Assembly (NCBI GenBank): GCA_963706595.1
Contig: OY970166.1
Span: 4,640,001-4,704,000 of the forward strand
Origin: an uncultured cyanobacterium
GTDB taxonomy: Bacteria > Cyanobacteriota > Cyanobacteriia > Cyanobacteriales > Nostocaceae
Length of the DNA stretch: 64,000 nt
Direction: 5' to 3'
The translations under genes were made by a program, and so were the position numbers. A model generated the notes under the pieces. The model was not told where the DNA came from and searched no databases. It saw only the letters and a list, made by a program, of their open reading frames with translations. Positions 39,666 through 61,822 of the stretch are shown here, piece after piece (position 1 is the stretch's first letter; each line of letters begins with the position of its first letter).

Positions 39666-40859
39666 TCAACCAATCCGGCTATTGCTTAGGAGGCGTTGAG
39701 CTTTAAGAACCGCGTGACCGTCGGCTCTATTCTTTATATTGATTGCTGCATTGTGGTCACGGTCAAGACTGCATCCACAATTAAGGCAGTCATGCCAGCG
39801 TTCGTGCAGCTTTTTAGGAACTTTCACCCCACAACTAGAACAATCTTGTGATGTACCTGATGGATTCACTGCGATTACCAATAACCCAGCATTTACGGCT
39901 TTGGTTGTCAATATGGACAGGAAGCTTGACCATCCAGCGTCATGTACAGATTTGGCTAGCATGGAAAGAGAAAGACCTTTAACGTTTAAATCTTCATGAA
40001 CTACAACGTCATATTTTTTCAGGAGATTGTTCGCTATTTTCAAGTGAAAGTCTTTACGTTTATCAGCTACTTTTTTGTGCTGCTTGGCGACTTGCTGAAT
40101 AGCTTTTTTACGCCGATTACTTCCTTTTTTCCGGCGTGAGATCCGTTTTTGAATGACCCGTAATCGCTTTTGAGATTTACGGTAATGCTGAGGGATCGGG
40201 ACAACATTACCCTCGGAAGTTGTCAAAAAGTCTTTTAAACCCAGGTCGATACCAGTTATAGAATCTGGATTGAAATCAGGTTTAATTGTGGGAACTGTCG
40301 CATCTTCAAGGCTTAAACTCAAATAATAACCATCAGCTTTTTTTGTTACTGATGCGGTTTTAATTTTAAATCCGTCAGGTATTGGGCGGTGCAAAATCAC
40401 CTTGACCATACCAAACATCGGCAAAGTGATCAGACTGCCTTGTAAACACCCATCTTTTATCTGTGGATATGTAAACGTGCGGTAACGTTCACGAGATTTA
40501 AAGCGAGGTCGCCCACTTCGTTTTCCATTGCTATCACCTTTTAAAAAACGGTCAAATGTCACCTTCACTCGTTTAACTATGTCCTGTAATACCTGCGAGT
40601 AAATTTCGCCGTACCAAGGATGAGTTTTTTTAAGCTGTGGTAGCGTTTTCTTTTGTGAATAATAGTCTGGGTTATCCCTTAATTCTGGTATATGGCAGAC
40701 CAGAGGACAAGCGTTAATCGGTGAACGATTGCGCTCATACCAATCAAATCTATCAGCCAACAGATAGTTGTACTGTGAACACAGCATAGCCAACCATCTG
40801 TCTATTTCAATGGCTTGCTTTGTTGTTGGTCGTAGCTTATATTGGTACGCTGTCCTCAC
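39666..40859 (-). CDS. tnpB: TnpB RNA-guided endonuclease (IS605/IS1341-type)
   Basis: Intact RuvC GIDLG / VHEDL / DRDHNAA and a CxxC...CxxC zinc finger. Confidence 0.95.
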
Positions 40860-49486: not shown

Positions 49487-51406
49487 ATGAACTCTATACA
49501 AAAACCTTGCTTAACTATTCCTGATTTCCTTGAACATTGGCAAAAAACACAACCAGATGCGATCGCAATTATCGCCCCCCAACGTCAACCCCTAACTTAC
49601 CAGCAACTTCACGCCCAAACCCTGATAGTTGCCCAAGCTTTAGCACAACTCAATATTCATCCTAACGAACCGGTAGCCGTTGCCCTTCCCAACAGTCCAG
49701 AAATGGCTGTGATGTTCCTCTCCGTTGCTTCCTATGCCACCTGCGCCCCCCTCAACCCCAACTATCGAGAAACAGAGTATGAATTTTATCTGAGTGACCT
49801 GCAACCAAAAGCGCTGATTATGCAATCTGGGGTAGCTGACGCAGCCCGCAAAGTCGCGGAAATGCAAAAAATACCAATTATTGAGTTATCACCTAATTTA
49901 GAGGCATCAGCAGGTATCTTTTCCCTGAACTTTACCCCTGCATCTACCGCCCAAATTGACCCCGCCACCCCCGATAATATCGCCCTGATTTTGCATACTT
50001 CCGGCACTACCTCCCGCCCAAAAATCGTTCCTCTCAGCCATCACAATCTTTGTACTTCTGCCAGCAACATTAGCCAAACACTACAATTAACAGCCCATGA
50101 CTGCTGTCTCAACGTCATGCCTTTATTTCATATTCATGGGTTGATAGGCTGTTTGCTCTCCACCATCAGCACCGGGGCAAGTATAATTTGTACTCCGGGG
50201 TTTCAATCACCCAACTTTCTCGACTGGTTACAACAACTGCAACCAACTTGGTATTCTGCTGTACCGACAATGCAGCAGCTAATTTTGGAAAGAGCAAAAT
50301 CTACTTCTGACCTCTCCCACAACTTAAGGCTAATTCGTTCCTCCTCCGCTTCCCTTCCCCCACAAGTAATTCAAGAATTGGAAGCCACCTTCAAAGTGCC
50401 TGTGATTGAGGCTTATGGCATGACAGAAGCCTCCCATCAAATGACCAGTAACCCCCTACCGCCTTTAGTGCGTAAACCCGGTTCAGTTGGTTTACCAGCA
50501 GGGCCTGAAGTTGCCATCATGGATGAAGCTGGTAATTTTCTTGCCGTTGGAGAGGTTGGAGAAATAGTCATTCGTGGTGCAAATGTGACACAAGGATATG
50601 GGAATAATCCTGAAGCTAACACCAAAGCATTTACACAGGGGTGGTTTCGCACAGGAGACCAGGGGATGTTTGATGAGGATGGCTATCTGACGATTAAAGG
50701 ACGAATCAAAGAATTAATCAATCGTGGTGGAGAAAAAATAGCCCCTCGTGAAATTGATGAAGTGTTACTGGAACATCCAAACATTGCCCAAGCTGTAGCT
50801 TTTGCTGTTCCTCATTCTCTGTTAGGAGAAGAAGTTGGAGTAGCCGTAGTTCTCAAACAGGGCAAAACTGTTACCGAGGAAGAAGTACAAACATTTATTG
50901 CCAAGTCTCTAGCAGATTTTAAAGTTCCCCGTCGGGTTGTTTTTTTAGATGCAATTCCCAAAGGTGCTACTGGCAAGTTACAACGGATTGGATTAGCTGA
51001 AAAATTAGGGATCACCTTTGCCGAACCAGCAACAGAACTTTTAAGTTTTATCCCTCCTAGAACATCTTTAGAAATAGTCATCGCCAACATTTGGGCAACG
51101 TTTCTCAAACGGGAGAAAATCGGGATAGAAGATAATTTCTATGCCTTGGGAGGACAATCTTTAGAAGCGGTGGAAATTACAGGTGAAATAGAAGAACTTT
51201 TTGCTATTAAACTACCCTTATTAGCAATCTCTAAAGCTCCTACGGTTGCTAAACTGGCAGAATTAATAATACAAAAATCCTCACAGGCAAAACTCCTAGA
51301 AATAATGGCTCAACAAATTCTCGATGTGGCGGATATGCAAGAAGAAGAAATTGAACAAATGTTAGCTGAACACAACGCTTGTGCTGGGGTAGAAGGAGAA
51401 TCATGA
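49487..51406 (+). CDS. NRPS loading protein: oxalate-CoA-ligase-like adenylation domain plus carrier (T) domain
   Basis: HTSGTTSRPK, PLFHIHG, PTWYSAVPT, RSSSASL, EAYGMTEASHQM, GKLQR; C-terminal DNFYALGGQSL. Confidence 0.85.
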   Translation: MNSIQKPCLTIPDFLEHWQKTQPDAIAIIAPQRQPLTYQQLHAQTLIVAQALAQLNIHPNEPVAVALPNSPEMAVMFLSVASYATCAPLNPNYRETEYEFYLSDLQPKALIMQSGVADAARKVAEMQKIPIIELSPNLEASAGIFSLNFTPASTAQIDPATPDNIALILHTSGTTSRPKIVPLSHHNLCTSASNISQTLQLTAHDCCLNVMPLFHIHGLIGCLLSTISTGASIICTPGFQSPNFLDWLQQLQPTWYSAVPTMQQLILERAKSTSDLSHNLRLIRSSSASLPPQVIQELEATFKVPVIEAYGMTEASHQMTSNPLPPLVRKPGSVGLPAGPEVAIMDEAGNFLAVGEVGEIVIRGANVTQGYGNNPEANTKAFTQGWFRTGDQGMFDEDGYLTIKGRIKELINRGGEKIAPREIDEVLLEHPNIAQAVAFAVPHSLLGEEVGVAVVLKQGKTVTEEEVQTFIAKSLADFKVPRRVVFLDAIPKGATGKLQRIGLAEKLGITFAEPATELLSFIPPRTSLEIVIANIWATFLKREKIGIEDNFYALGGQSLEAVEITGEIEELFAIKLPLLAISKAPTVAKLAELIIQKSSQAKLLEIMAQQILDVADMQEEEIEQMLAEHNACAGVEGES

Positions 51407-53808
51407 GTCAATTTGAACAGCAACCATTAAATTTATCAAGTCACAAGCGGGCTTTATTAAAAAAGCTACAACAGCAGCAAGGAATAAAGGGAGTATCAAC
51501 ACAGAAAATTCCCCAAAGGACGACAGAGGGAGAACTTCCACTTTCTTATTCTCAAGAGTGGATGTGGTTACTGGAACAACTGACTCCTACTGTTTACAAC
51601 AATCCCCTGACTCTGAAATTAACTGGTCAACTCAATTACAAAAGCTTAGAAAGAGCCTTGAATGAAATTGTAGTTCGCCATGAAGCGCTGAGAACAAAAT
51701 CTTATTTATCAGCAGGAATAACAAAACAATTTATTGCGCCTCCCTCAGATTATATTCTCTCAATTGTTGATGTATCGTCAGCATCAGAAGCTAGAGAACA
51801 GCTAATAGCAGAAACTAAACGCCCTTTTCAATTGGAAAAAGACTTGCCTTGGCGTGCAGTTTTATTCCGCATCAGCGAAATTGAACATTGGTTTCATCTC
51901 ACCTTACATCACATCGTTGATGACGATCAATCTGATGTACTTTGGGTTAAGGAACTGACTGTTTTATATGAAGCATTTTCAGAAAATCGTCCATCACCTC
52001 TATCTGAATTACCCATTCAATACGCAGATTTTGCGCTTTGGCAGCGAGAGCAATTACAAGGAGAAAATTACCAAAAACTTCTAAATTACTGGCAAAATCA
52101 ACTAGGAGATTTACCCCCTGCTCTCAATTTACCATTTAAGCAACAACCAGACTTAAAAACATTAGCAGGTGATCAAGAACAGATCAGACTTTCCCCAGAA
52201 TTAACCAGTTCCTTAAAATACCTGAGTCAGCAAGCACAGGTGACTTTTTTCACGCTACTTTTGACTACTTTAAAAATCTTGCTTTATCGCTATACAGGGC
52301 AAAGTGATTTAATAGTTGGTACTCCTACTTCTTGGCGACAAAAACCGGAAACTCAGAGTTTAATCGGGGTTTTCATGAATAACTTAGTATTACGCAGTAA
52401 GCTATCAGGAGATATTAGTTTTCTGACATTCTTAAGACAAGTACAAGATACGGTTTTAGAAGCCCAAGAGCATAGTAACTTCCCCTATCTAGAACTGGTT
52501 ACTCAGTTGGAGAATGGTGGCGTTGATAAAGGAAACTCTCTATTTGAGGTAATGCTGGATTTTCAAGGTCAGTCATTACCAGTAAGGGAGGTTTCTGGTT
52601 TAACTTGGGAATCCCTGGAAATTAATCCTAAAACTGCAAAAGTTCCTCTTGCTTTACACCTGGAAGAAGACAATGGAGAATTGAAAGGCTTTTTTGGATA
52701 TAGCACTGGTTTATTTGATTGAGATACTATTATTCGTGCTGTTGGACATTTTGAAACCTTATTAGAAGGGATTGTTGCTAATCCTGATCAACTTATTTCT
52801 AAGTTACCTTTGTTAACAACTTCTGAGCAACAACAAATTTTAGTTGAGTGGAATCAGACTGAGACAGAATACCCACAAGATAAGTGTATTCATCAATTAT
52901 TTGAGGAACAGGTTGAGAAAATGCCAGATGCGATTGCAGTTGTGTTTGAAGATCAACAACTAACTTATCAACAGTTGAATGAAAAAGCTAATCAACTAGC
53001 ACATTACTTACAAGAAATTGGAGTCAAACCAGAGGTTTTAGTAGGGATTTGTATAGAACGTTCTCTGGAGATGATAGTAGGATTATTAGGGATTCTCAAA
53101 GCGGGAGGAGCTTATGTTCCTCTTGATCCTAATTCTCCCCATGAGCGAATGGAGTATCTATTTGCCGATGCTCAATTTAGTTTATTGATCACAAAAAAAA
53201 GAGCATCATTAAATTTCCCAAAATCCTATCCTTTGATAATTGATATAGATGAGTGTTCAGACGTATTACAACATCAGAGTAAATCTAATTGTCAAAGTGG
53301 TGTAACAGCTAGAAATTTAGGATATGTCATTTATACATCTGGTTCAACTGGACAGCCAAAAGGTGTATTAGTTGAACATAGAAGTGTAGCCAACTTTTTG
53401 TATTTTCGTAACAACGAAATTTTTAAACCAGATGAGTTAAAAGCAGGAACAGTCACAGCTTCTATTTACTTTGATGCTAGTGTTGCTCAAATTTTCTCTC
53501 CCCTAATCATAGGTGGTAAAATCGTTATCATTCCCGAAATAGGCCAATTATTTAAATGGATAGAGCAGGAAAGAATTACTTGTTTAACCATAGTCCCTTC
53601 ATTATTAGAGCAATTACTCCAAAGCTCTTCCCTACCTGATTCTATTCAGGTTATTGGATTAGGTGGAGAAGCAGTAACTGAAACTTTGCTAAAAGAATTA
53701 GTCCAGCATCCCAACGTTAAAAAAATTATTAATTTATATGGTCCAACAGAAGCCACAATTGGTAGCTGTAGTAGTATCATATATGAGCAAATAAATCATT
53801 CAGTGTGA
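51403..53808 (+). pseudogene. NRPS C domain plus N-terminal half of an A domain (a1-a5), interrupted by an in-frame TGA at 52720-52722
   Basis: ORFs 51403-52722 and 52810-53808 share one frame; the paralogous linker at ~58985 has CGA at the TGA position; C motif HHIVDDD; A motifs YTSGSTGQPKG, FDAS, NLYGPTE. Confidence 0.8.
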
Positions 53809-53817
53809 GACTTATCT

Positions 53818-54678
53818 ATGTATTCAAATAATCAAAACATTACATCTAATAACTTATCTAAAAATCATTGGAAAAAAGCTCCCCAATGGTTTGATTTGCT
53901 TAGTTCACCCTTACGTCCAAGTCCTGAAGATATAGATTTTCTGAAACTACAAGTTTTACCTAAACTACAAATAGACTCTGCTGAAACAAAAAAAGTTGTT
54001 TTATTAGGAGTAACACCAGAAATTGCCACTTTACCTTGGTCTGAAAAGACTGAAATTTTAGCTATTGACAGTTCTGATATGATGATTAATACAGTTTGGC
54101 CTCGAGAACAGGTTTCTAGAGGAAAAGCTATTAATGGAAATTGGCAACAACTGCCTTTAGCAGATAATTCCTGTAACCTGGTTTTAGGAGACGGTTGTTT
54201 TACTTTACTTGATTATCCTCATGGCTATAAAACAGTTTTACAAGAAATTCTCAGAGTCCTTAAAACTAACGGATTATGTGTAATGAGATTTTTCTTGCGC
54301 CCAGAGAAAGCTGAGGATTTGCCAACTATATTTGCACAATTACAGAATAAATCTGTTGGTAATTTTCAGGTTTTTAAGTGGCGTTTAGCAATGGCTTTAC
54401 AAAAAAATATTCAGTCAGGAGTTCCAGTCAGAGAAATTTGGCAGGTATGGAATCAAGAAGTTCCTTTCCCAGAAAAACTTATGCAAGAATTGGCATGGTC
54501 GAGCGAATTGCTAGAAACTATAAATATCTATAAAGATTCACCATCTGTTTACACATTTCCCACATTAGCAGAAGTTAGACAGTTGTGTAATTCTGACTTT
54601 ATCGAAGAGTCCTGTTATTTTCCTAGCTATGAGTTGGGAGAACGTTGTCCCACTTTAGTATTTCGCGCTCTCAAGTAA
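53818..54678 (+). CDS. Class I SAM-dependent methyltransferase
   Basis: VVLLGVTPE (motif I variant), AIDSS, LPLADNSCNLVLGDG, EILRVLK. Confidence 0.75.
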   Translation: MYSNNQNITSNNLSKNHWKKAPQWFDLLSSPLRPSPEDIDFLKLQVLPKLQIDSAETKKVVLLGVTPEIATLPWSEKTEILAIDSSDMMINTVWPREQVSRGKAINGNWQQLPLADNSCNLVLGDGCFTLLDYPHGYKTVLQEILRVLKTNGLCVMRFFLRPEKAEDLPTIFAQLQNKSVGNFQVFKWRLAMALQKNIQSGVPVREIWQVWNQEVPFPEKLMQELAWSSELLETINIYKDSPSVYTFPTLAEVRQLCNSDFIEESCYFPSYELGERCPTLVFRALK

Positions 54679-54736
54679 AATTTTTCTGAACCAATATTGT
54701 ATTAAAACGAAGTCACTTTATAGGAGGATGAATTGA

Positions 54737-56305
54737 ATGTTGGATTGCATCGTTATTGGAGGGGGTCCAGGAGGCTTAGTTACTACTAAAGAGCTACTTG
54801 AACAAGGCATAGATAAAGTAGTTTGCTTGGAAAAAACAGAGGAAATAGGCGGTGTTTACATTAATCATGCTTATGATAATTTAATTTTGACTTCTTCTTG
54901 TACATATAGTATGTTTTCAGATTTCTGGATGGGAGATGGAAAACAGCACGAATTCTGGACTAAAAAAGAAGTTGTTGAATATTGGAAAAATTACGCTAAA
55001 CATTTTGGAGTTATAGATAAAATTCGTTTCAACTCTGAAGTTTTATCAATAACTCCACAAGACACAGGAGGATGGCAAGTTGAACTGAAATCACAAGAAA
55101 TTTTACACTCAAAACGAGTAGCATTAGCAATTGGCAATAATAATATCCCTAGTTATCCAGATTGGAAAGAATCATTAACCCAGGTTGAGTTTTTTCATTC
55201 CCAACAATATCGCAATGCTAACGGATTTGTAGATAAAAATGTATTAGTAGTTGGAGGCGGAGAGTCAGGAGCAGATATAGCACTAGAAACATCTAAAGTC
55301 GCCAAAACTTGCTGGAATAGTCTACGGAATTCCGCCGGATGGATTATTCCCAGAAAAAGAGGTGCTTATGCTGCTGACATTGCTACCCATCGAGGGTTAT
55401 ATGGTTTACCAAGGGAATATGGATATACATTTAGTAATCTTCTTATTCAAAATGAATTGAATTACAATGATCCGGTTCATGACACTGTTGTGAAGCTGAA
55501 TCAGAAAATAAAGTCTAAAAACGGAATTTGGGGAATATATGGAACTAAAAACTTGTCATTACCTCAAGCAATTGTTGATCATGGTTGTCAAGTTGTAGGC
55601 GAAATTTCCCAAGTAGAAGATGGAGGTAAAACTTTAATCACTGCGGATGGTGAAATTCTGGAAAATGTAGATGCAGTGGTATTTTGTACAGGTTACAAAA
55701 ACTCTATTTCCTTTCTACCAGATGAGTTTAAAAAAACCGATCCTCGATATCTGTATAAACATATGTTTCATCCAGAATTGCGGGATAAAATTGTTTGGAT
55801 TGGTTGGGCGCGTCCAGGTTATGGTAGCCAATTTCCGATTATGGAAATGCAAGCTAGGTTGTTTGCGTTAATTTGTGCCGATCAAAAAGAACTACCATCT
55901 TTGGAAACTATGAAAGAGGTTGCATTTGTAGATAGAGAAAATTTTTTAAAGCAGTTTGAACATAATGCTGTTCGCATAAGAAGTTTGGTTGATTACCATA
56001 TCTATATGGATGATCTTGCAGATGTAATTGGATGTAAACCGCCATTATGGAAATACTTCTTTTTGCATCCTCGTCTATGGCTACGGATAGTATATGGAGC
56101 AACTCAAGCTACTCAATTTCGTCTCCAAGGACCTGGACAGAAGGAAACTTTAGCTCAAGAGTTTATTAGGAAATTACCTGTAAGTCCCTTCAATCATGTG
56201 GTCAAAGCTGGTTTAATAGGTCGTTTAATTTATGCTTTGAACGCTATAGTTAAACCTATTTCATCTTTACGCTTACGGAAGCTAAAACATAAAACTTTAT
56301 CTTGA
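54737..56305 (+). CDS. Class B flavin-dependent monooxygenase (FMO-like)
   Basis: GGGPGG (FAD), FFHSQQY, VGGGESG (NADPH) and FCTGY motifs; own AGGAGG RBS. Confidence 0.9.
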   Translation: MLDCIVIGGGPGGLVTTKELLEQGIDKVVCLEKTEEIGGVYINHAYDNLILTSSCTYSMFSDFWMGDGKQHEFWTKKEVVEYWKNYAKHFGVIDKIRFNSEVLSITPQDTGGWQVELKSQEILHSKRVALAIGNNNIPSYPDWKESLTQVEFFHSQQYRNANGFVDKNVLVVGGGESGADIALETSKVAKTCWNSLRNSAGWIIPRKRGAYAADIATHRGLYGLPREYGYTFSNLLIQNELNYNDPVHDTVVKLNQKIKSKNGIWGIYGTKNLSLPQAIVDHGCQVVGEISQVEDGGKTLITADGEILENVDAVVFCTGYKNSISFLPDEFKKTDPRYLYKHMFHPELRDKIVWIGWARPGYGSQFPIMEMQARLFALICADQKELPSLETMKEVAFVDRENFLKQFEHNAVRIRSLVDYHIYMDDLADVIGCKPPLWKYFFLHPRLWLRIVYGATQATQFRLQGPGQKETLAQEFIRKLPVSPFNHVVKAGLIGRLIYALNAIVKPISSLRLRKLKHKTLS

Positions 56306-57189
56306 TAATCAAAGTACATAATCAAAGTACGAGTCTTACAAAAACAATGGGAATATCTATTGGTAAACCGATCTTTAATACACAAGTCTATATTCTTGAT
56401 CAAAACTTAAATCTTCTTCCTGTAGGTATTCCCGGAGAGTTACACATCGGAGGAATTGGTCTATCTAGAGGCTATTTGAGGCGCGATGAACTAAGTGAAA
56501 ATAAGTTTATCCCCAATCCTTTTGGTGAGGGAAAGCTATATAAAACTGGAGATTTAGCTCGTTATCTTCTTAACGGAGAAATTGAATTTCTCGGTCGTCT
56601 AGATGATCAAGTCAAAATACGGGGTTTCCGTATTGAATTAGGAGAAATTAAAAATTCTTTATCTCAGCATGATCAAATCCGAGAAACCTTAGTTATTGCC
56701 TACGAAGATTTAGTTGAAAAGCGATTAGTTGCTTATTTTGTTAGCCGTGCTGATGACGCTATTTCTAATCAAGACTTACGAGAGTTTCTAGGGCAAAAAT
56801 TACCCTCTTACATGATTCCGTCTGCTTTTCTACAAATAGAGAAGTTTCCCTTAACTACCAGTGGCAAAATCGACCGTCGCGCTTTACCAAAACCGAGTTT
56901 TGAGCAGATTAATACAGAGTTTGTTCCCCCTCGCACTGAGATAGAAGTCAAAATTGCCGAGATTTGGTCACAAGTTTTGGGGATAGATACTATCGGCGTT
57001 GATGATAATTTTTTTGCCGTAGGAGGACATTCACTTTTAGCAACTCAGGTAATTTCCCGCCTGTTCCAAGTGTTTGGTGTCAAACTTTCTTTTATCAGTT
57101 TTTTCTCTACACCTACTATAGCGGGATTAAGTCAGGAAATAGAGAAGTTGCGCGGGGTTAGTGATGATTATGAAGAGGGAGAAATCTGA
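56302..57189 (+). CDS. C-terminal half of an NRPS A domain (a6-a10) plus T domain and acidic docking tail
   Basis: SIGKPI, GELHIGG, YKTGD, GRLDDQVKIRGFRIELGE, SGKIDR, GGHSL, terminal DDYEEGEI; start TTG 56302 or ATG 56347. Confidence 0.85.
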   Translation: MIIKVHNQSTSLTKTMGISIGKPIFNTQVYILDQNLNLLPVGIPGELHIGGIGLSRGYLRRDELSENKFIPNPFGEGKLYKTGDLARYLLNGEIEFLGRLDDQVKIRGFRIELGEIKNSLSQHDQIRETLVIAYEDLVEKRLVAYFVSRADDAISNQDLREFLGQKLPSYMIPSAFLQIEKFPLTTSGKIDRRALPKPSFEQINTEFVPPRTEIEVKIAEIWSQVLGIDTIGVDDNFFAVGGHSLLATQVISRLFQVFGVKLSFISFFSTPTIAGLSQEIEKLRGVSDDYEEGEI

Positions 57190-57569
57190 ATTATATTCAA
57201 ATTTTACACAAAAACCTCACTATAAGTATCGCTGATTTCCTTGGGCATTGGCAAAAAACACAACCAGATGCGATCGCAATTATAATTCATCGAGAAGAAT
57301 TTGTTGCCCCTACTCATACAACAGAAATTAAATTAGCTCAAATTTGGGAAGAAATATTGAAAATAAAGAACATAGGAATTGATGATAATTTTTTGGACTT
57401 AGGAGGAAATTCTTTACTGGCAACACAAATTATCTTTCGTCTCCGCCCAACCTTTTAGGTAGAAATTTCTCTAAAGAGTTTTTTCAAAACACCTAATATA
57501 GCGGGATTAAGCCAGGAAATAGACAATTTACGCGAGTTTAGTGATAATTATGAGGAGGGGGAAATATGA
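57186..57569 (+). pseudogene. Collapsed NRPS A-T gene relic
   Basis: 57210-57283 copies the 5' end of the 49487 gene; 57295-57569 is a frameshifted T domain (GGNSLLATQ...YEEGEI). Confidence 0.8.
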
Positions 57570-60500
57570 ATTCTATTCAAGTATTATTGGAAGAATTGCA
57601 AGCTGAAAATATTCAGTTGTGGGTTGAGGAAGATCGTCTGCGCTATCGTTGTCCAAATAATGCCCTCACCCCAGAGTTAAGAGAACAGTTATCTGCTCAT
57701 AAATCGGAAATAATTGCTTTTTTGCGACAACAGGAACGAGTGGAAACTATCCCCATTGCTGAGGATGATTTTCTCCCTTTATCCTTCGCCCAGCAACGTT
57801 TGTGGTTTCTCGATCAACTTGAACCAAATCTTGCGGTTTATAATACCCCTCTAGCTTTACGTTTGCAGGGGAATCTTGATATTTCTGCTTTAGAAAAAAG
57901 CCTGGAAAAGATTGTTGAGCGTCATAGTGTTTTGCGTACTAATTTTCCCACGATAGACGGAAAACCTTATCAAAATATAGTATCGGAATTAAGGCTATCC
58001 GTTCCTGTGGTTGATATGCAACATCTTGATTCTGCTACAGCAGAGGCGGAACTTCAAGATATTCTTGTTCAATTCATCAACGAACCTTTTGATTTAGCAG
58101 AAGGAAAGGTAATCAGAAGTCAGATATTTCATATCTCTGCTTCAGAATATATTTTAGTCACTGTTGTACATCATATCGCTTTTGATGCTTGGTCATCAAG
58201 GATTTGGTGGCAGGAGTTAATGAATTTTTATCAGGCTTTTGCTTTCAATGAACCGATATCTTTACCAGAGTTATCGATTCAATATAAAGATTTTGCGGTG
58301 TGGCAAAAATCACGTTTGCAAGGAGATTTTTTAGACCAGGAAGTTAATTACTGGCGAGAAAAACTAGCGGATGCGCCTCAAAATTTGGATCTGCTTACTG
58401 ACAACCCCCGCCCACCTGTACAGACTCACACAGGCGATCGCCAACATTTTCACCTTTCTAGTTCTCAAGTGGTAGCACTCAAACAATTAGGACTGGGTAA
58501 GGGGGCGACTTTGTATATGACTTTACTAACGGCTTTTGCCATCCTGCTGCATCGCTATAGTGGCCAAGAAGATTTTCTGATTGGTTCACCCATTGCTAAC
58601 CGCAACTATACAGAAATTGAAAACTTGATTGGCTTTTTTGTCAATACCCTGGCTTTGCGGATTAATTTAGCTAAAGACATTACTTTCCTGGAACTGCTGC
58701 AACAAGTTCGAGATACTACCCTAGAAGCTTATAGCCATCAAGATATTCCCTTTGAAAAGCTGGTTGAGGAATTGCAACCACAGCGCGATCGCTCCCGTCA
58801 TCCGCTATTTCAAGTCATGTTTGCCCTGCAAAATGTGCAAAGAGCAACCGTGAATTTACCTGACATTAATGTTAGTTCTTTCCCAGTTAGTACCAATACG
58901 AGTAAGTTTGATATCACTGTCATTCTGGAAGAAACCAAGGAAGGATTAAAAGGCTTTTTTGAGTATAGCAATGATTTATTTAATCGAGATACTATTATTC
59001 GTGCTGTTGAACATTTCCAAACATTACTAGAAGGGATTGTTGCTCATCCCGATCAACTTATTTCCCAGTTACCGCTATTCACAAATTCTGAGCAAAAACA
59101 AATTTTAGTTGAGTGGAATCAGACTAAGACAGAATACCCACAGGATAAGTGTATTCATCAATTATTTGAGGAACAGGTCGAGAAAACGCCAGATGCGATC
59201 GCAGTGGTGTTTGAAGATGAACAACTAACTTATCAACAGTTGAATGAAAAAGCTAATCAACTTGCTCATTACCTAAAAGGTTTAGGGGTTGGTACTGATG
59301 TTTTAGTAGGGTTATATGTAGAAAGGTCTGTTGATATTATGGTTGGTATATTAGGCATTCTCAAAGCTGGTGGTGCTTATGTCCCCCTTGACCCCAAATA
59401 TCCATCGGAACGTTTGGCATTAATGATACAGGAGGCTCAAGTTGAGGTTATATTAACACAACAACACCTAATAAATTCACTGCTAAAAACAGAGGCAAAA
59501 ATCATCTGTTTAGATACAGATTGGCAAGTAATATCATCTTCCCATTCTCCTCAATCTTCCCCCAGTCCTCAATCCCCTAATGATCTAGCTTACGTAATTT
59601 ATACATCTGGTTCAACTGGTAAACCCAAAGGCGTTGCTATGCCGCATCGTCCTTTGGTGAACTTAATTACTTGGCAATTACAAACATCCACCATTGAACC
59701 CCAAAGCAGAACACTGCAATACACACCCATTAGTTTTGATGTCTCCTTTCAAGAAATCTTTTCCACCCTGACCACAGGTGGCACATTGGTCTTAATCACC
59801 GATGAGACACGACGCAATCCCAGCAGTTTATTGCAACTTCTTCAGCAACAGCACATCAATCGTTTATTCTTACCCTTTGTTGCCCTACAACAATTAGCTG
59901 AGGTGGTACAGCTAGAAGGTATACTCCTCAGTAGTTTGCAGGAAGTGATTACTGCCGGCGAACAGTTACGGATTACGGAGGCAATCGCACATCTGTTCAC
60001 CCATTTACCCCACTGCACACTACACAACCATTATGGGCCGTCAGAAACTCATGTTGTAACTGCCTATACCTTGACAGGTTCAGCCCAAGATTGGGCGATG
60101 TTACCACCGATTGGTCATCCCATAGCCAATACTCAAATTTATCTCTTAGATGCTTACGGACAACCAGTACCAATTGGGGTAGCAGGGGAATTATATATTG
60201 GGGGTGCTGGTATGGCTAGAGGTTATCTCCATCGTCCTGAACTAACTGCTAAGAAATTTGTTTCCCATCCCTTGAGCCATGAATCAACCGCAAAACTCTA
60301 TCGCACTGGTGATTTAGCACGTTATCTTCCTGATGGAAATGTAGAATTTCTCGGTCGTCTAGATGATCAAGTCAAAATACGGGGTTTCCGTATTGAACTT
60401 GGAGAAGTGGAAGCTGTTCTCAATCAACATCCTCATGTCTTCAATACAGTGGCGATCGCCCGTGAAGACATTCCCGGAGATAAACGCCTCATAGCTTATA

Positions 60501-61822
60501 TTATCCTTGAACCCCAAGCAACACCCTCTCAGAGCGAATTGCGGGAATTTCTGAGACAGAAGCTACCAGATTACATGATTCCCTCTGTTTTCGTATTTTT
60601 AGACAAGTTTCCCCTGACTCCCAATGGTAAAATCAACCGTCGCGCTCTGCCCAAGCCTGAATTAACTCTGCAAGAACGAGAGGAAACTTTTATCGCGCCA
60701 CGTAATGAATTAGAAGAGAAACTGGCAGTAATTTGGCAAGAAATTTTAAAGATTGAGCCAATTGGTATTCACGATAACTTCTTTGAACTAGGAGGTCATT
60801 CCCTACTCACAGTCAGTCTGGTAACTAAAATCGAGACGACGCTGGGGAAAAAACTGCCAATTACAGCTCTATTTGAGTTAACAACCATTGCTCAGTTAGC
60901 CAATTATCTTAAAAATGAAGATATTTTAGACAACCCTCCCGCTCATCCCACTATTTACGATTACCAACTTTCTGGAGAGCAAGAAAAACAGCTTTTAGCC
61001 ATTATCGTTGGTCGTCAAGGTGAACGACCTCACCCGCACTCATTCATGGTGAAAATCCACTCAAAAGGTGATCAGGAAAAACCGTTTTTTTACTGCGCTA
61101 ATAGTTATAAAGAAGCTCTACCTTTAGCCAATTGTTTAGAATATTCTTTTTATTTACTCGAATCAGGTTATACTGTCTTTGGTAGTGATTATGCTTACGG
61201 CATTAAGGCTTTAGCGGCGCGCCATGTGGAAGATATTTTAAGAGTCCAGCCTCACGGATTTTATTCCATTGGTGGTTATTCTTATGGAACACTGGTAGCT
61301 TACGAAATTAGTCAGCAACTGCAAGCACGAGGAAAAACCGTAGATTTATTAGTGATTTTTGATCGTCCAGGTACTCATTTTCTTTACGTACTTTATCAAT
61401 ACTTCTACAAGCTACCGTCTCATATTAGTTGGATTTTGTCTACTCTCCAGCAGTCTCACCCCAGAAAACGTTTGCAAGATTTGCAACAAAAAGGATTAAG
61501 GATTTTGCGGAGGTTGGGATTAAATCAGATACCACAGCAAGCAACAACAGAAATACAACTATCAGAACAGAGCCTATCTTCCCCAATGCTGAACACATCT
61601 CCTTATCAATTTGCGCCCTATGAAGGTCGTGTAGTCTTGTTGTGTGCAGAGGAAAGAAAAACGCCACTGTGGTTATTTCCCCACAATGGGTGGAGTCAGA
61701 AAATCCTACCCAATTTGGAGGTATACAAAGTACCTGGGACGCACCACAACATGATTAAATCTCCCCATGTCGAAGTTTTGGCAAAACAACTGAAAACGTG
61801 TTTACAACGCATCGCATTTTAG
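57566..61822 (+). CDS. Terminal NRPS: docking domain-C-A(Pro)-T-TE
   Basis: TubC-type N-terminal docking sequence, HHIAFD, manually read specificity code DVQFIAHVVK (Pro), GGHSL, TE GYSYG. Confidence 0.92.
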   Translation: MNSIQVLLEELQAENIQLWVEEDRLRYRCPNNALTPELREQLSAHKSEIIAFLRQQERVETIPIAEDDFLPLSFAQQRLWFLDQLEPNLAVYNTPLALRLQGNLDISALEKSLEKIVERHSVLRTNFPTIDGKPYQNIVSELRLSVPVVDMQHLDSATAEAELQDILVQFINEPFDLAEGKVIRSQIFHISASEYILVTVVHHIAFDAWSSRIWWQELMNFYQAFAFNEPISLPELSIQYKDFAVWQKSRLQGDFLDQEVNYWREKLADAPQNLDLLTDNPRPPVQTHTGDRQHFHLSSSQVVALKQLGLGKGATLYMTLLTAFAILLHRYSGQEDFLIGSPIANRNYTEIENLIGFFVNTLALRINLAKDITFLELLQQVRDTTLEAYSHQDIPFEKLVEELQPQRDRSRHPLFQVMFALQNVQRATVNLPDINVSSFPVSTNTSKFDITVILEETKEGLKGFFEYSNDLFNRDTIIRAVEHFQTLLEGIVAHPDQLISQLPLFTNSEQKQILVEWNQTKTEYPQDKCIHQLFEEQVEKTPDAIAVVFEDEQLTYQQLNEKANQLAHYLKGLGVGTDVLVGLYVERSVDIMVGILGILKAGGAYVPLDPKYPSERLALMIQEAQVEVILTQQHLINSLLKTEAKIICLDTDWQVISSSHSPQSSPSPQSPNDLAYVIYTSGSTGKPKGVAMPHRPLVNLITWQLQTSTIEPQSRTLQYTPISFDVSFQEIFSTLTTGGTLVLITDETRRNPSSLLQLLQQQHINRLFLPFVALQQLAEVVQLEGILLSSLQEVITAGEQLRITEAIAHLFTHLPHCTLHNHYGPSETHVVTAYTLTGSAQDWAMLPPIGHPIANTQIYLLDAYGQPVPIGVAGELYIGGAGMARGYLHRPELTAKKFVSHPLSHESTAKLYRTGDLARYLPDGNVEFLGRLDDQVKIRGFRIELGEVEAVLNQHPHVFNTVAIAREDIPGDKRLIAYIILEPQATPSQSELREFLRQKLPDYMIPSVFVFLDKFPLTPNGKINRRALPKPELTLQEREETFIAPRNELEEKLAVIWQEILKIEPIGIHDNFFELGGHSLLTVSLVTKIETTLGKKLPITALFELTTIAQLANYLKNEDILDNPPAHPTIYDYQLSGEQEKQLLAIIVGRQGERPHPHSFMVKIHSKGDQEKPFFYCANSYKEALPLANCLEYSFYLLESGYTVFGSDYAYGIKALAARHVEDILRVQPHGFYSIGGYSYGTLVAYEISQQLQARGKTVDLLVIFDRPGTHFLYVLYQYFYKLPSHISWILSTLQQSHPRKRLQDLQQKGLRILRRLGLNQIPQQATTEIQLSEQSLSSPMLNTSPYQFAPYEGRVVLLCAEERKTPLWLFPHNGWSQKILPNLEVYKVPGTHHNMIKSPHVEVLAKQLKTCLQRIAF

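Follow-up and report, generated by a model that had tools for sequence, protein, structure and literature searches.

Can an adenylation (A) domain of a nonribosomal peptide synthetase (NRPS) be divided between two genes inside its core, with free tailoring genes placed between the parts, and still serve its module? The question is raised by a 64,000-nucleotide stretch of DNA from an uncultured cyanobacterium of the Nostocaceae (GenBank assembly GCA_963706595.1, contig OY970166.1, positions 4,640,001 to 4,704,000 of the forward strand), hereafter called the window. A preliminary description of its letters had noted an A domain that stops after core motif a5 and resumes some 2.5 kb later at the IGKP motif, the gap being filled by two complete genes, a methyltransferase (MT) gene and a flavin-containing monooxygenase (FMO) gene. 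Re-reading of the coordinates and sequences confirmed this arrangement and the retention of all core motifs. We conclude that the window holds one copy of a conserved, clade-wide two-gene split of an NRPS A domain, whose halves probably reassemble in trans into a working module. The parts are as follows.

51403..52722, + strand: condensation (C) domain of the C-A(N-half) gene, ended early by TGA 52720-52722; in frame with the N-half; orthologue P0241.
52723..53808, + strand: remainder of the C domain, then the C-A linker and the N-half of the A domain, which holds a1-a5 and the entire substrate pocket; the frame is open from TTG 52810.
53818..54678, + strand: free-standing gene with a class I S-adenosylmethionine (SAM)-dependent methyltransferase fold (MT); Pfam Methyltransf_11.
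54737..56305, + strand: FMO-like gene; Pfam FMO-like at 1e-61, PDB FMO matches.
56305..56330, no strand: 13-bp tandem duplication (ATAATCAAAGTAC twice) in the spacer between FMO and C-half; no role assigned.
56347..57189, + strand: A-domain C-half (IGKP 'G-motif', a6-a10) and thiolation (T) domain; probable start ATG 56347.

The N-half frame terminates in ...NLYGPTEATIGSCSSIIYEQINHSV, with a stop codon ending at 53808 as described, although this is 18 residues past YGPTE (a5) and not 17. The cut lies between a5 and IG[KR]P. After a gap of 2,538 bases the C-half restarts at IGKP and carries a6-a10 and a T domain with GGHSL, so that every core motif from a1 to a10 is kept across the two halves. 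As reported earlier, the MT (53818-54678) is in frame with the N-half behind a single TGA and the FMO has its own ribosome-binding site (AGGAGG 9 bases before its ATG). Stops at 53806, 54676 and 56303 separate the window genes. The FMO TGA does overlap a TTG at 56302, a codon earlier taken, probably in error, as the C-half start. Because a Met stands 4-5 residues ahead of IG[KR]P in all five of the other loci with both halves and the relative P0267 begins MGISIGKP, the C-half of the window probably starts at ATG 56347 (MGISIGKP). Its product of 280 aa is present as a protein-collection record. With this start the 13-bp duplication, which is exact over 56305-56330, falls in intergenic DNA. In one relative's contig (X2 record 14) the stretch corresponding to 54385-57199 lacks 15 bases; this is compatible with absence of the duplication there but is not proof.

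Homologous loci had been proposed as a check, and they show the split conserved and unfused elsewhere. The same cut with both halves was found at six loci: the window, plus five at about 50-60% identity from four genomes (in four other cyanobacterial families) and one metagenome contig. The six span five family codes (f1, f7, f8, f14 and f27), and a split confined to one strain, named earlier as a ground for rejection, is not what we observe. The layouts are given below, with A(N) and A(C) for the two halves and TE for thioesterase.

G431: C-A(N) stop, MT, FMO, A(C)-T-C-A-T-TE.
G042: C-A(N) stop, zinc dehydrogenase (IolM family), MT, A(C)-T.
G876: starter ligase, isocitrate-lyase-family gene, long NRPS ending in A(N) stop, FMO, MT, A(C)-T, C-A-T-TE.
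L106 (metagenome contig): C-A(N) stop, FMO (frameshifted), chorismate-lyase-like gene, MT, A(C)-T.
G844:C4: A(N) stop (truncated by the contig end), unrelated MT on the opposite strand, A(C)-T-TE.
G844:C25: C-A(N) stop, MT; no C-half adjoining.

The nested blocks measure 930-3332 bases and hold one to three free-standing genes, whose kind, order and strand vary by locus. An MT homologue follows the N-half or sits between the halves in five other loci. The FMO is nested also in G431, G876 and L106 and is absent from the G042 block; overall an FMO-like gene is missing from 2/6 two-half loci. The G844 genome has two different N-halves and one free C-half-T-TE (L263 6161-9456, L295 11090-13938).

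The layout also occurs in the titled records L026 and L036 (2/80 loci), which we left out of the locus count, and in one of 80 metagenome loci. Of 120 proteins listed, eight belong to this group as C-A chains whose ends lie 18-25 residues beyond the first residue of a5; three (near-)repeat counted loci and five are new, including one from Planktothricoides sp. SR001. The closest orthologues carry the NCBI name Aphanizomenon sp., and in two Aphanizomenon records consecutive accessions give a whole C-A(N), MT and FMO. The layout is nevertheless rare. Genome profiles were built including the sequences already found, and the best 6-10 candidates per genome were scored; the MT profile identified 5/401 genomes of the order, the N-half profile matched the same five plus one weak match in a 2586-aa frame, and in the window's own family 1/389 genomes has the layout. 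Short C-half-like proteins starting near the G-motif made up 30 of 120 listed; they are known as proteins only, most may be fragments, and they were left out of the counts. Four short a6-a10-T proteins (P0273, P0274, P0289 and P0314) share the start M[LF][GS]YS.[PS]IG and are possibly a second group of natural C-halves, known from proteins alone.

All 12 N-halves (a3-a5 parts) fell on one side of a single branch (support 94/82) in a tree of 42 rows, from which distant rows and near-copies had been dropped, and 11/11 stayed together among the 94 rows of a larger tree. The two G844 rows form long branches and their placement is less sure. The sister group consists of intact A domains of the YGPSEDTTY type, which we take to be Ala-type. 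The genomes searched yielded no undivided A domain belonging to the N-half clade, and contig scans with N-half alignments returned ordinary A domains only among the matches listed.

The 12 N-halves all end 10-22 residues past YGPTE. In each, the strand that follows a5 is preserved, with a hydrophobic residue at +10 in 12/12, and the chain ends in a polar loop; the tail and head together measure 14-22 residues in the split domains against 16-26 in 115 intact ones. Position +11 is aromatic in 8/11 N-halves and hydrophobic in 12% of intact domains, and the residue two places before IG is Ile or similar in 5/6 C-halves. These two features perhaps reflect an interface adapted between the halves. 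As far as the available DNA extends, the halves retain their core motifs and the Ser of the T domain, including the P-loop and the residues Asp of a4, Asp of a7, Arg of a8 and Lys of a10. A model of the N-half by itself, built on a 9-row alignment, had a pLDDT of 39.9, too low for use.

The ratio of nonsynonymous to synonymous substitution rates (dN/dS, Nei-Gojobori), likewise proposed earlier as a check, was well below 1 for both halves: 0.17-0.42 in 15 N-half pairs and 0.10-0.27 in 9/10 C-half pairs, with 0.35-0.51 for the MT and 0.13-0.18 for the FMO. The unsaturated N-half pair, L106 and G876, gave 0.22 at a dS of 0.34. The pocket part alone gave 0.25 at a dS of 0.21.

This same pair is a mosaic. 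DNA identity was 44-65% over the C domain, 72% at its end, 78-95% over the N-half and 82-100% over FMO and MT; the C-half began at 86% and 77% (first and second 45-base window) and continued at 53-82%. The G876 C-half is 82-97% identical to its own neighbouring modules. From this one close pair we infer an exchange unit of N-half, stop, tailoring genes and C-half start. A block of linker, N-half, stop, tailoring genes and first C-half codons would move between modules by recombination in conserved flanks, in the manner of A-core swaps (PMC8097286); if it moves as one unit, the pocket and the tailoring enzymes would therefore travel together. In the window, 52660-53138 and 58925-59403 (linker and a1-a2 of the split and the terminal module) share 84.5% DNA identity, which can be read as a sign of local gene conversion.

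The halves would be translated separately and then associate. We infer this because all that is interrupted is the variable polar loop connecting the strand that follows a5 to the G-motif, because the cut is conserved, and because mixing of Crz1 and Crz2, the two proteins of a corallorazine synthetase A domain, restored activity; both are needed in vitro, which sets a precedent for a functional A domain encoded by two genes (PMC11342130). The C domain, P-loop and pocket would reside on the first chain; the second would contribute the T domain along with the parts that bind ATP and move. The cut is placed immediately ahead of the G-motif. This motif divides the a5-a6 region by substrate information, bonds residues of a5 and a7 and serves as a cut point for subdomain swaps (PMC10212144), and a natural recombination breakpoint lies at its border (PMC9205934). 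Among the options listed in the preliminary description, a two-chain A domain thus has the six loci, the clade of 12 N-halves, the intact motifs and the low dN/dS behind it, with reassembly as the predicted step.

Several points weigh against reassembly into a working module, which we regard as likely on sequence grounds. The cut runs through the A-core beside the active site, a bigger demand than the known a8-a9 split. There are lesions: the stop at 52720 and a gene remnant in the window, a frameshifted FMO and an A-less C-T unit in L106. The G844:C25 N-half has no adjacent C-half, and the MT is also found without a nearby NRPS (L027, L028 and L111). Most dN/dS pairs are near saturation, and homogenisation with intact modules could be partly behind the low values; in G876, 315 bases of the C-half match the cluster's own upstream module at 84-97% identity. 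Halves of different phylogeny had been named as a danger. The N-halves form one clade, whereas the C-halves do not group in a free tree (4 changes), where one clade is not rejected (p-AU 0.385).

The stop at 52720 is a separate matter from the split. The C domain and N-half form a single reading frame, a C-A gene from ATG 51403, broken by TGA 52720-52722. Orthologue P0241 (801 aa, 89% identical over the C domain) has Arg440 at the TGA site and terminates where the N-half of the window does. By origin the N-half is therefore no independent gene but the last, in-frame portion of a C-A gene, and because P0241 has Arg where the window has TGA, the stop is a second break, private to this strain. 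A sequencing error is a possible origin. Genome-wide, broken genes are hardly commoner than in a control: 7/133 conserved genes were flagged, against 5/147 in the reverse test on G003, some flags lying at alignment ends. This strain's copy of the module is probably inactive owing to the stop, and for tests of function the strain is badly suited; there are intact loci elsewhere.

The alternative that survives best is that the halves are kept for roles other than adenylation, the N-half as a structural partner of the C domain or a binder of the MT substrate and the C-half only as a T carrier, loaded by another A domain or skipped. The C-A(N) and MT of G844:C25, without an adjoining C-half, would fit such roles, as would the homogenisation of C-halves with host modules. 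We think it unlikely, given the retained P-loop and catalytic residues listed above, the dN/dS of the pocket part and the start of the C-half at the same motif in 6/6 loci. Less probable still is that a single insertion killed the module and that a dead split spreads or decays as a passenger. The lesions in the window and L106 and the patchy spread (5/401 genomes) agree with this, and an inactivating insertion had been among the earlier options. For the split itself it fits poorly: open frames and motifs persist over about 40-50% protein divergence, dN/dS is far below 1, whole C-A(N), MT and FMO genes stand in the named Aphanizomenon records, and nested genes are rearranged while the cut stays fixed. 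Only the copy of this strain looks broken, and that through the separate nonsense codon.

Little credit can be given to read-through into a single polypeptide, or to a transition towards a fused A-MT(-FMO)-A domain, the latter close to the earlier idea of a fused domain caught in formation. The MT does follow in frame behind one stop in the window (TGA) and in G431 (TAA), but the N-half is followed by a dehydrogenase in G042 and by the FMO in G876 and L106, the nested gene of G844:C4 lies on the opposite strand, and the FMO of the window is in a different frame from N-half and MT. The split state has also lasted through about 40% protein divergence, and six-frame genome searches found no fused form.

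Removal of the nested block at AATCA, by DNA excision or by splicing, so that an undivided A domain results, is very improbable. Heterocyst-forming cyanobacteria have developmental excision elements, and the xis-type elements carry a recombinase gene inside and direct repeats at their termini. The two AATCA copies (53794-98 and 56320-24) do join in frame, as had been noted together with the caution that they could be chance. They are at chance level, because 69% of 5000 shuffles of the flanks gave an in-frame shared 5-mer. The nested genes are an MT and an FMO with no recombinase among them, no repeat pair brackets the block in the window, each C-half has its own Met, and nested genes and lengths differ among loci. 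Nor did we find a transposase, terminal inverted repeats or a target duplication, the 13-bp duplication being tandem and at one end only. The joint 53798/56324 was not seen among 15 of 30 joints listed, in contigs that can show presence only. Misassembly, raised earlier and left some room by the lack of a run of the exact strain among those listed, can be dismissed almost entirely because relatives' contigs from three runs span the boundary of N-half and MT (X1 record 3 and X5 record 19) or run from MT through FMO into the C-half (X2 record 14), and because the independent loci contradict it, G431 having the same gene order. The split is real and conserved, and is neither an excision element nor a private accident.

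The surrounding region is a small NRPS cluster that runs from a starter A-T protein through the C domain, N-half, MT, FMO and C-half-T to a remnant and a terminal C-A-T-TE module. Its other members are listed here.

49487..51406, + strand: A-T starter protein, oxalate-CoA ligase family; Pfam AMP-binding and PP-binding.
57192..57569, + strand: gene remnant, about 25 codons resembling the start of the starter gene and a T-domain copy with an internal stop.
57566..61822, + strand: terminal NRPS module, docking domain-C-A-T-TE, A domain intact.

The best PDB matches of the starter are oxalyl-CoA synthetase 6qjz and oxalate-CoA ligase 5ie0 (E about 1e-130), so that this A-T protein (49487..51406) likely loads an oxalyl starter. 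The G876 cluster holds a homologue (57% identity); there, an oxalate-CoA-ligase-family starter stands beside an isocitrate-lyase/PEP-mutase-family gene (L262 5932-8739), which may supply the oxalate. The remnant (57192-57569) has 88% DNA identity to 49495-49572 in the starter gene. The terminal module (57566..61822) has pocket residues DVQFIAHVVK, presumably a Pro code, and a similar module lies downstream of the C-half in G431 and G876. Upstream of other split modules we observed an A-T-deaminase-methyltransferase fusion adjoining a PTPS/QueD-like gene (G042, L016 6315-9942) and an A-less C-T unit as well as a dioxygenase-like domain fused to a T domain (L106 3-3243). Promoter and terminator scans gave no signal above chance level. 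The window also holds an IS605-type TnpB gene (39666-40859), and the genome 4324 copies of the HIP1 octamer.

The nested MT is confidently predicted to have a class I SAM methyltransferase fold: its model (pLDDT 90.7) is Rossmann-like, and the class I MTs that it resembles share 10-17% identity with it, none of the solved structures being a close relative. Motif I reads LLGVTPE, and SAM is a putative cofactor. Neighbours of 160 MT loci clustered into polA-like, kinase-like and CoA-ligase-like groups (named by eye) and gave no substrate hint; a scan with the single MT protein returned one unrelated locus. An FMO homologue (66%) occurs without NRPS genes in G003 (L017 10277-17650), with two P450-like, a chorismate-lyase-like and a cyclase-like neighbour, also named by eye. 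The N-half pocket residues are about D-A-A-T-G-G-L-I-G-K, anchored on motifs and on a numbering we assume to apply, and we know of no specificity code that fits them. The pocket glycines suggest a large, unusual substrate. As a guess, MT and FMO would make or modify a non-standard building block. O-methyl oxime formation by FMO and MT, with a presumed link to PDB entry 8odw, is a lead only; such chemistry would be lobatamide-like (PMC7586987). Clusters combining an oxalate-ligase-like starter with an uncoded pocket were orphan in the searches made.

If the two-chain reading is true, a conserved natural cut in the A-core behind the pocket would mean that a pocket can exist as a protein chain of its own, and NRPS engineers would gain a tested split point at which specificity chains can be mixed with one catalytic chain. 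The block also shows a route by which tailoring genes could travel with the pocket they serve, and annotation tools will label such split modules broken. A bolder version, which we hold to be doubtful, is a natural plug-in module: the pocket as an exchangeable subunit docking on a generic a6-a10-T chain, its gene moving between clusters with tailoring enzymes, and the two G844 pocket chains perhaps sharing one C-chain and so switching building blocks.

How does this split compare with known systems? Searches of mostly openly readable papers, in their main text, found no report of an a5/G-motif split, and the accessible portions of PMC11411415, PMC7586987, PMC8857579, PMC7966384 and 10.1101/560987 contain nothing on one; the different cut and the nested free genes appear to be new. 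Interrupted A domains are fused proteins with inserts at a2-a3, a6-a7 or a8-a9 (PMC8341866; PMC11355689, PMC8949500). The window resembles their families 1-7 (PMC8341866) in having an MT inside the A domain in gene order and in retaining all core motifs a1-a10 (Lundy 2020). Those are single polypeptides, however, whereas at the six loci the auxiliary functions are separate genes, the site is a5/G-motif, outside the three known positions, and the MT family has no close solved relative. MtaG and MelG of myxothiazol and melithiazol synthesis (PMC11411415, PMC11342130) also place a monooxygenase within an A domain (A-MOx-A), but as a fused domain in Gly-type terminal modules, while the window has a free FMO-like gene. 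In A-core subdomain exchange between modules by recombination (PMC8097286, PMC9205934, PMC10212144) the pocket region is likewise swapped, with a border near a5-a6/G-motif; the block described here differs in that it includes complete tailoring genes together with a stop and a start codon, and on its 5' side it extends back to the C-domain end. The closest known system is the Crz1/Crz2 corallorazine synthetase (PMC11342130), termed the first report of its kind, and a working two-gene A domain has been reported that once. There too the motifs of one A domain are shared out over two open reading frames, without loss or overlap in the window, and the C-terminal piece continues into the module. 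The Crz cut falls after a8, at the A-core/A-sub (a8-a9) hinge, with an N-methyltransferase fused to the first chain and the two frames adjacent. The cut in the window lies inside the A-core between a5 and the G-motif and leaves a6-a8 on the second chain, and at this and the related loci one to three free genes stand between the halves.

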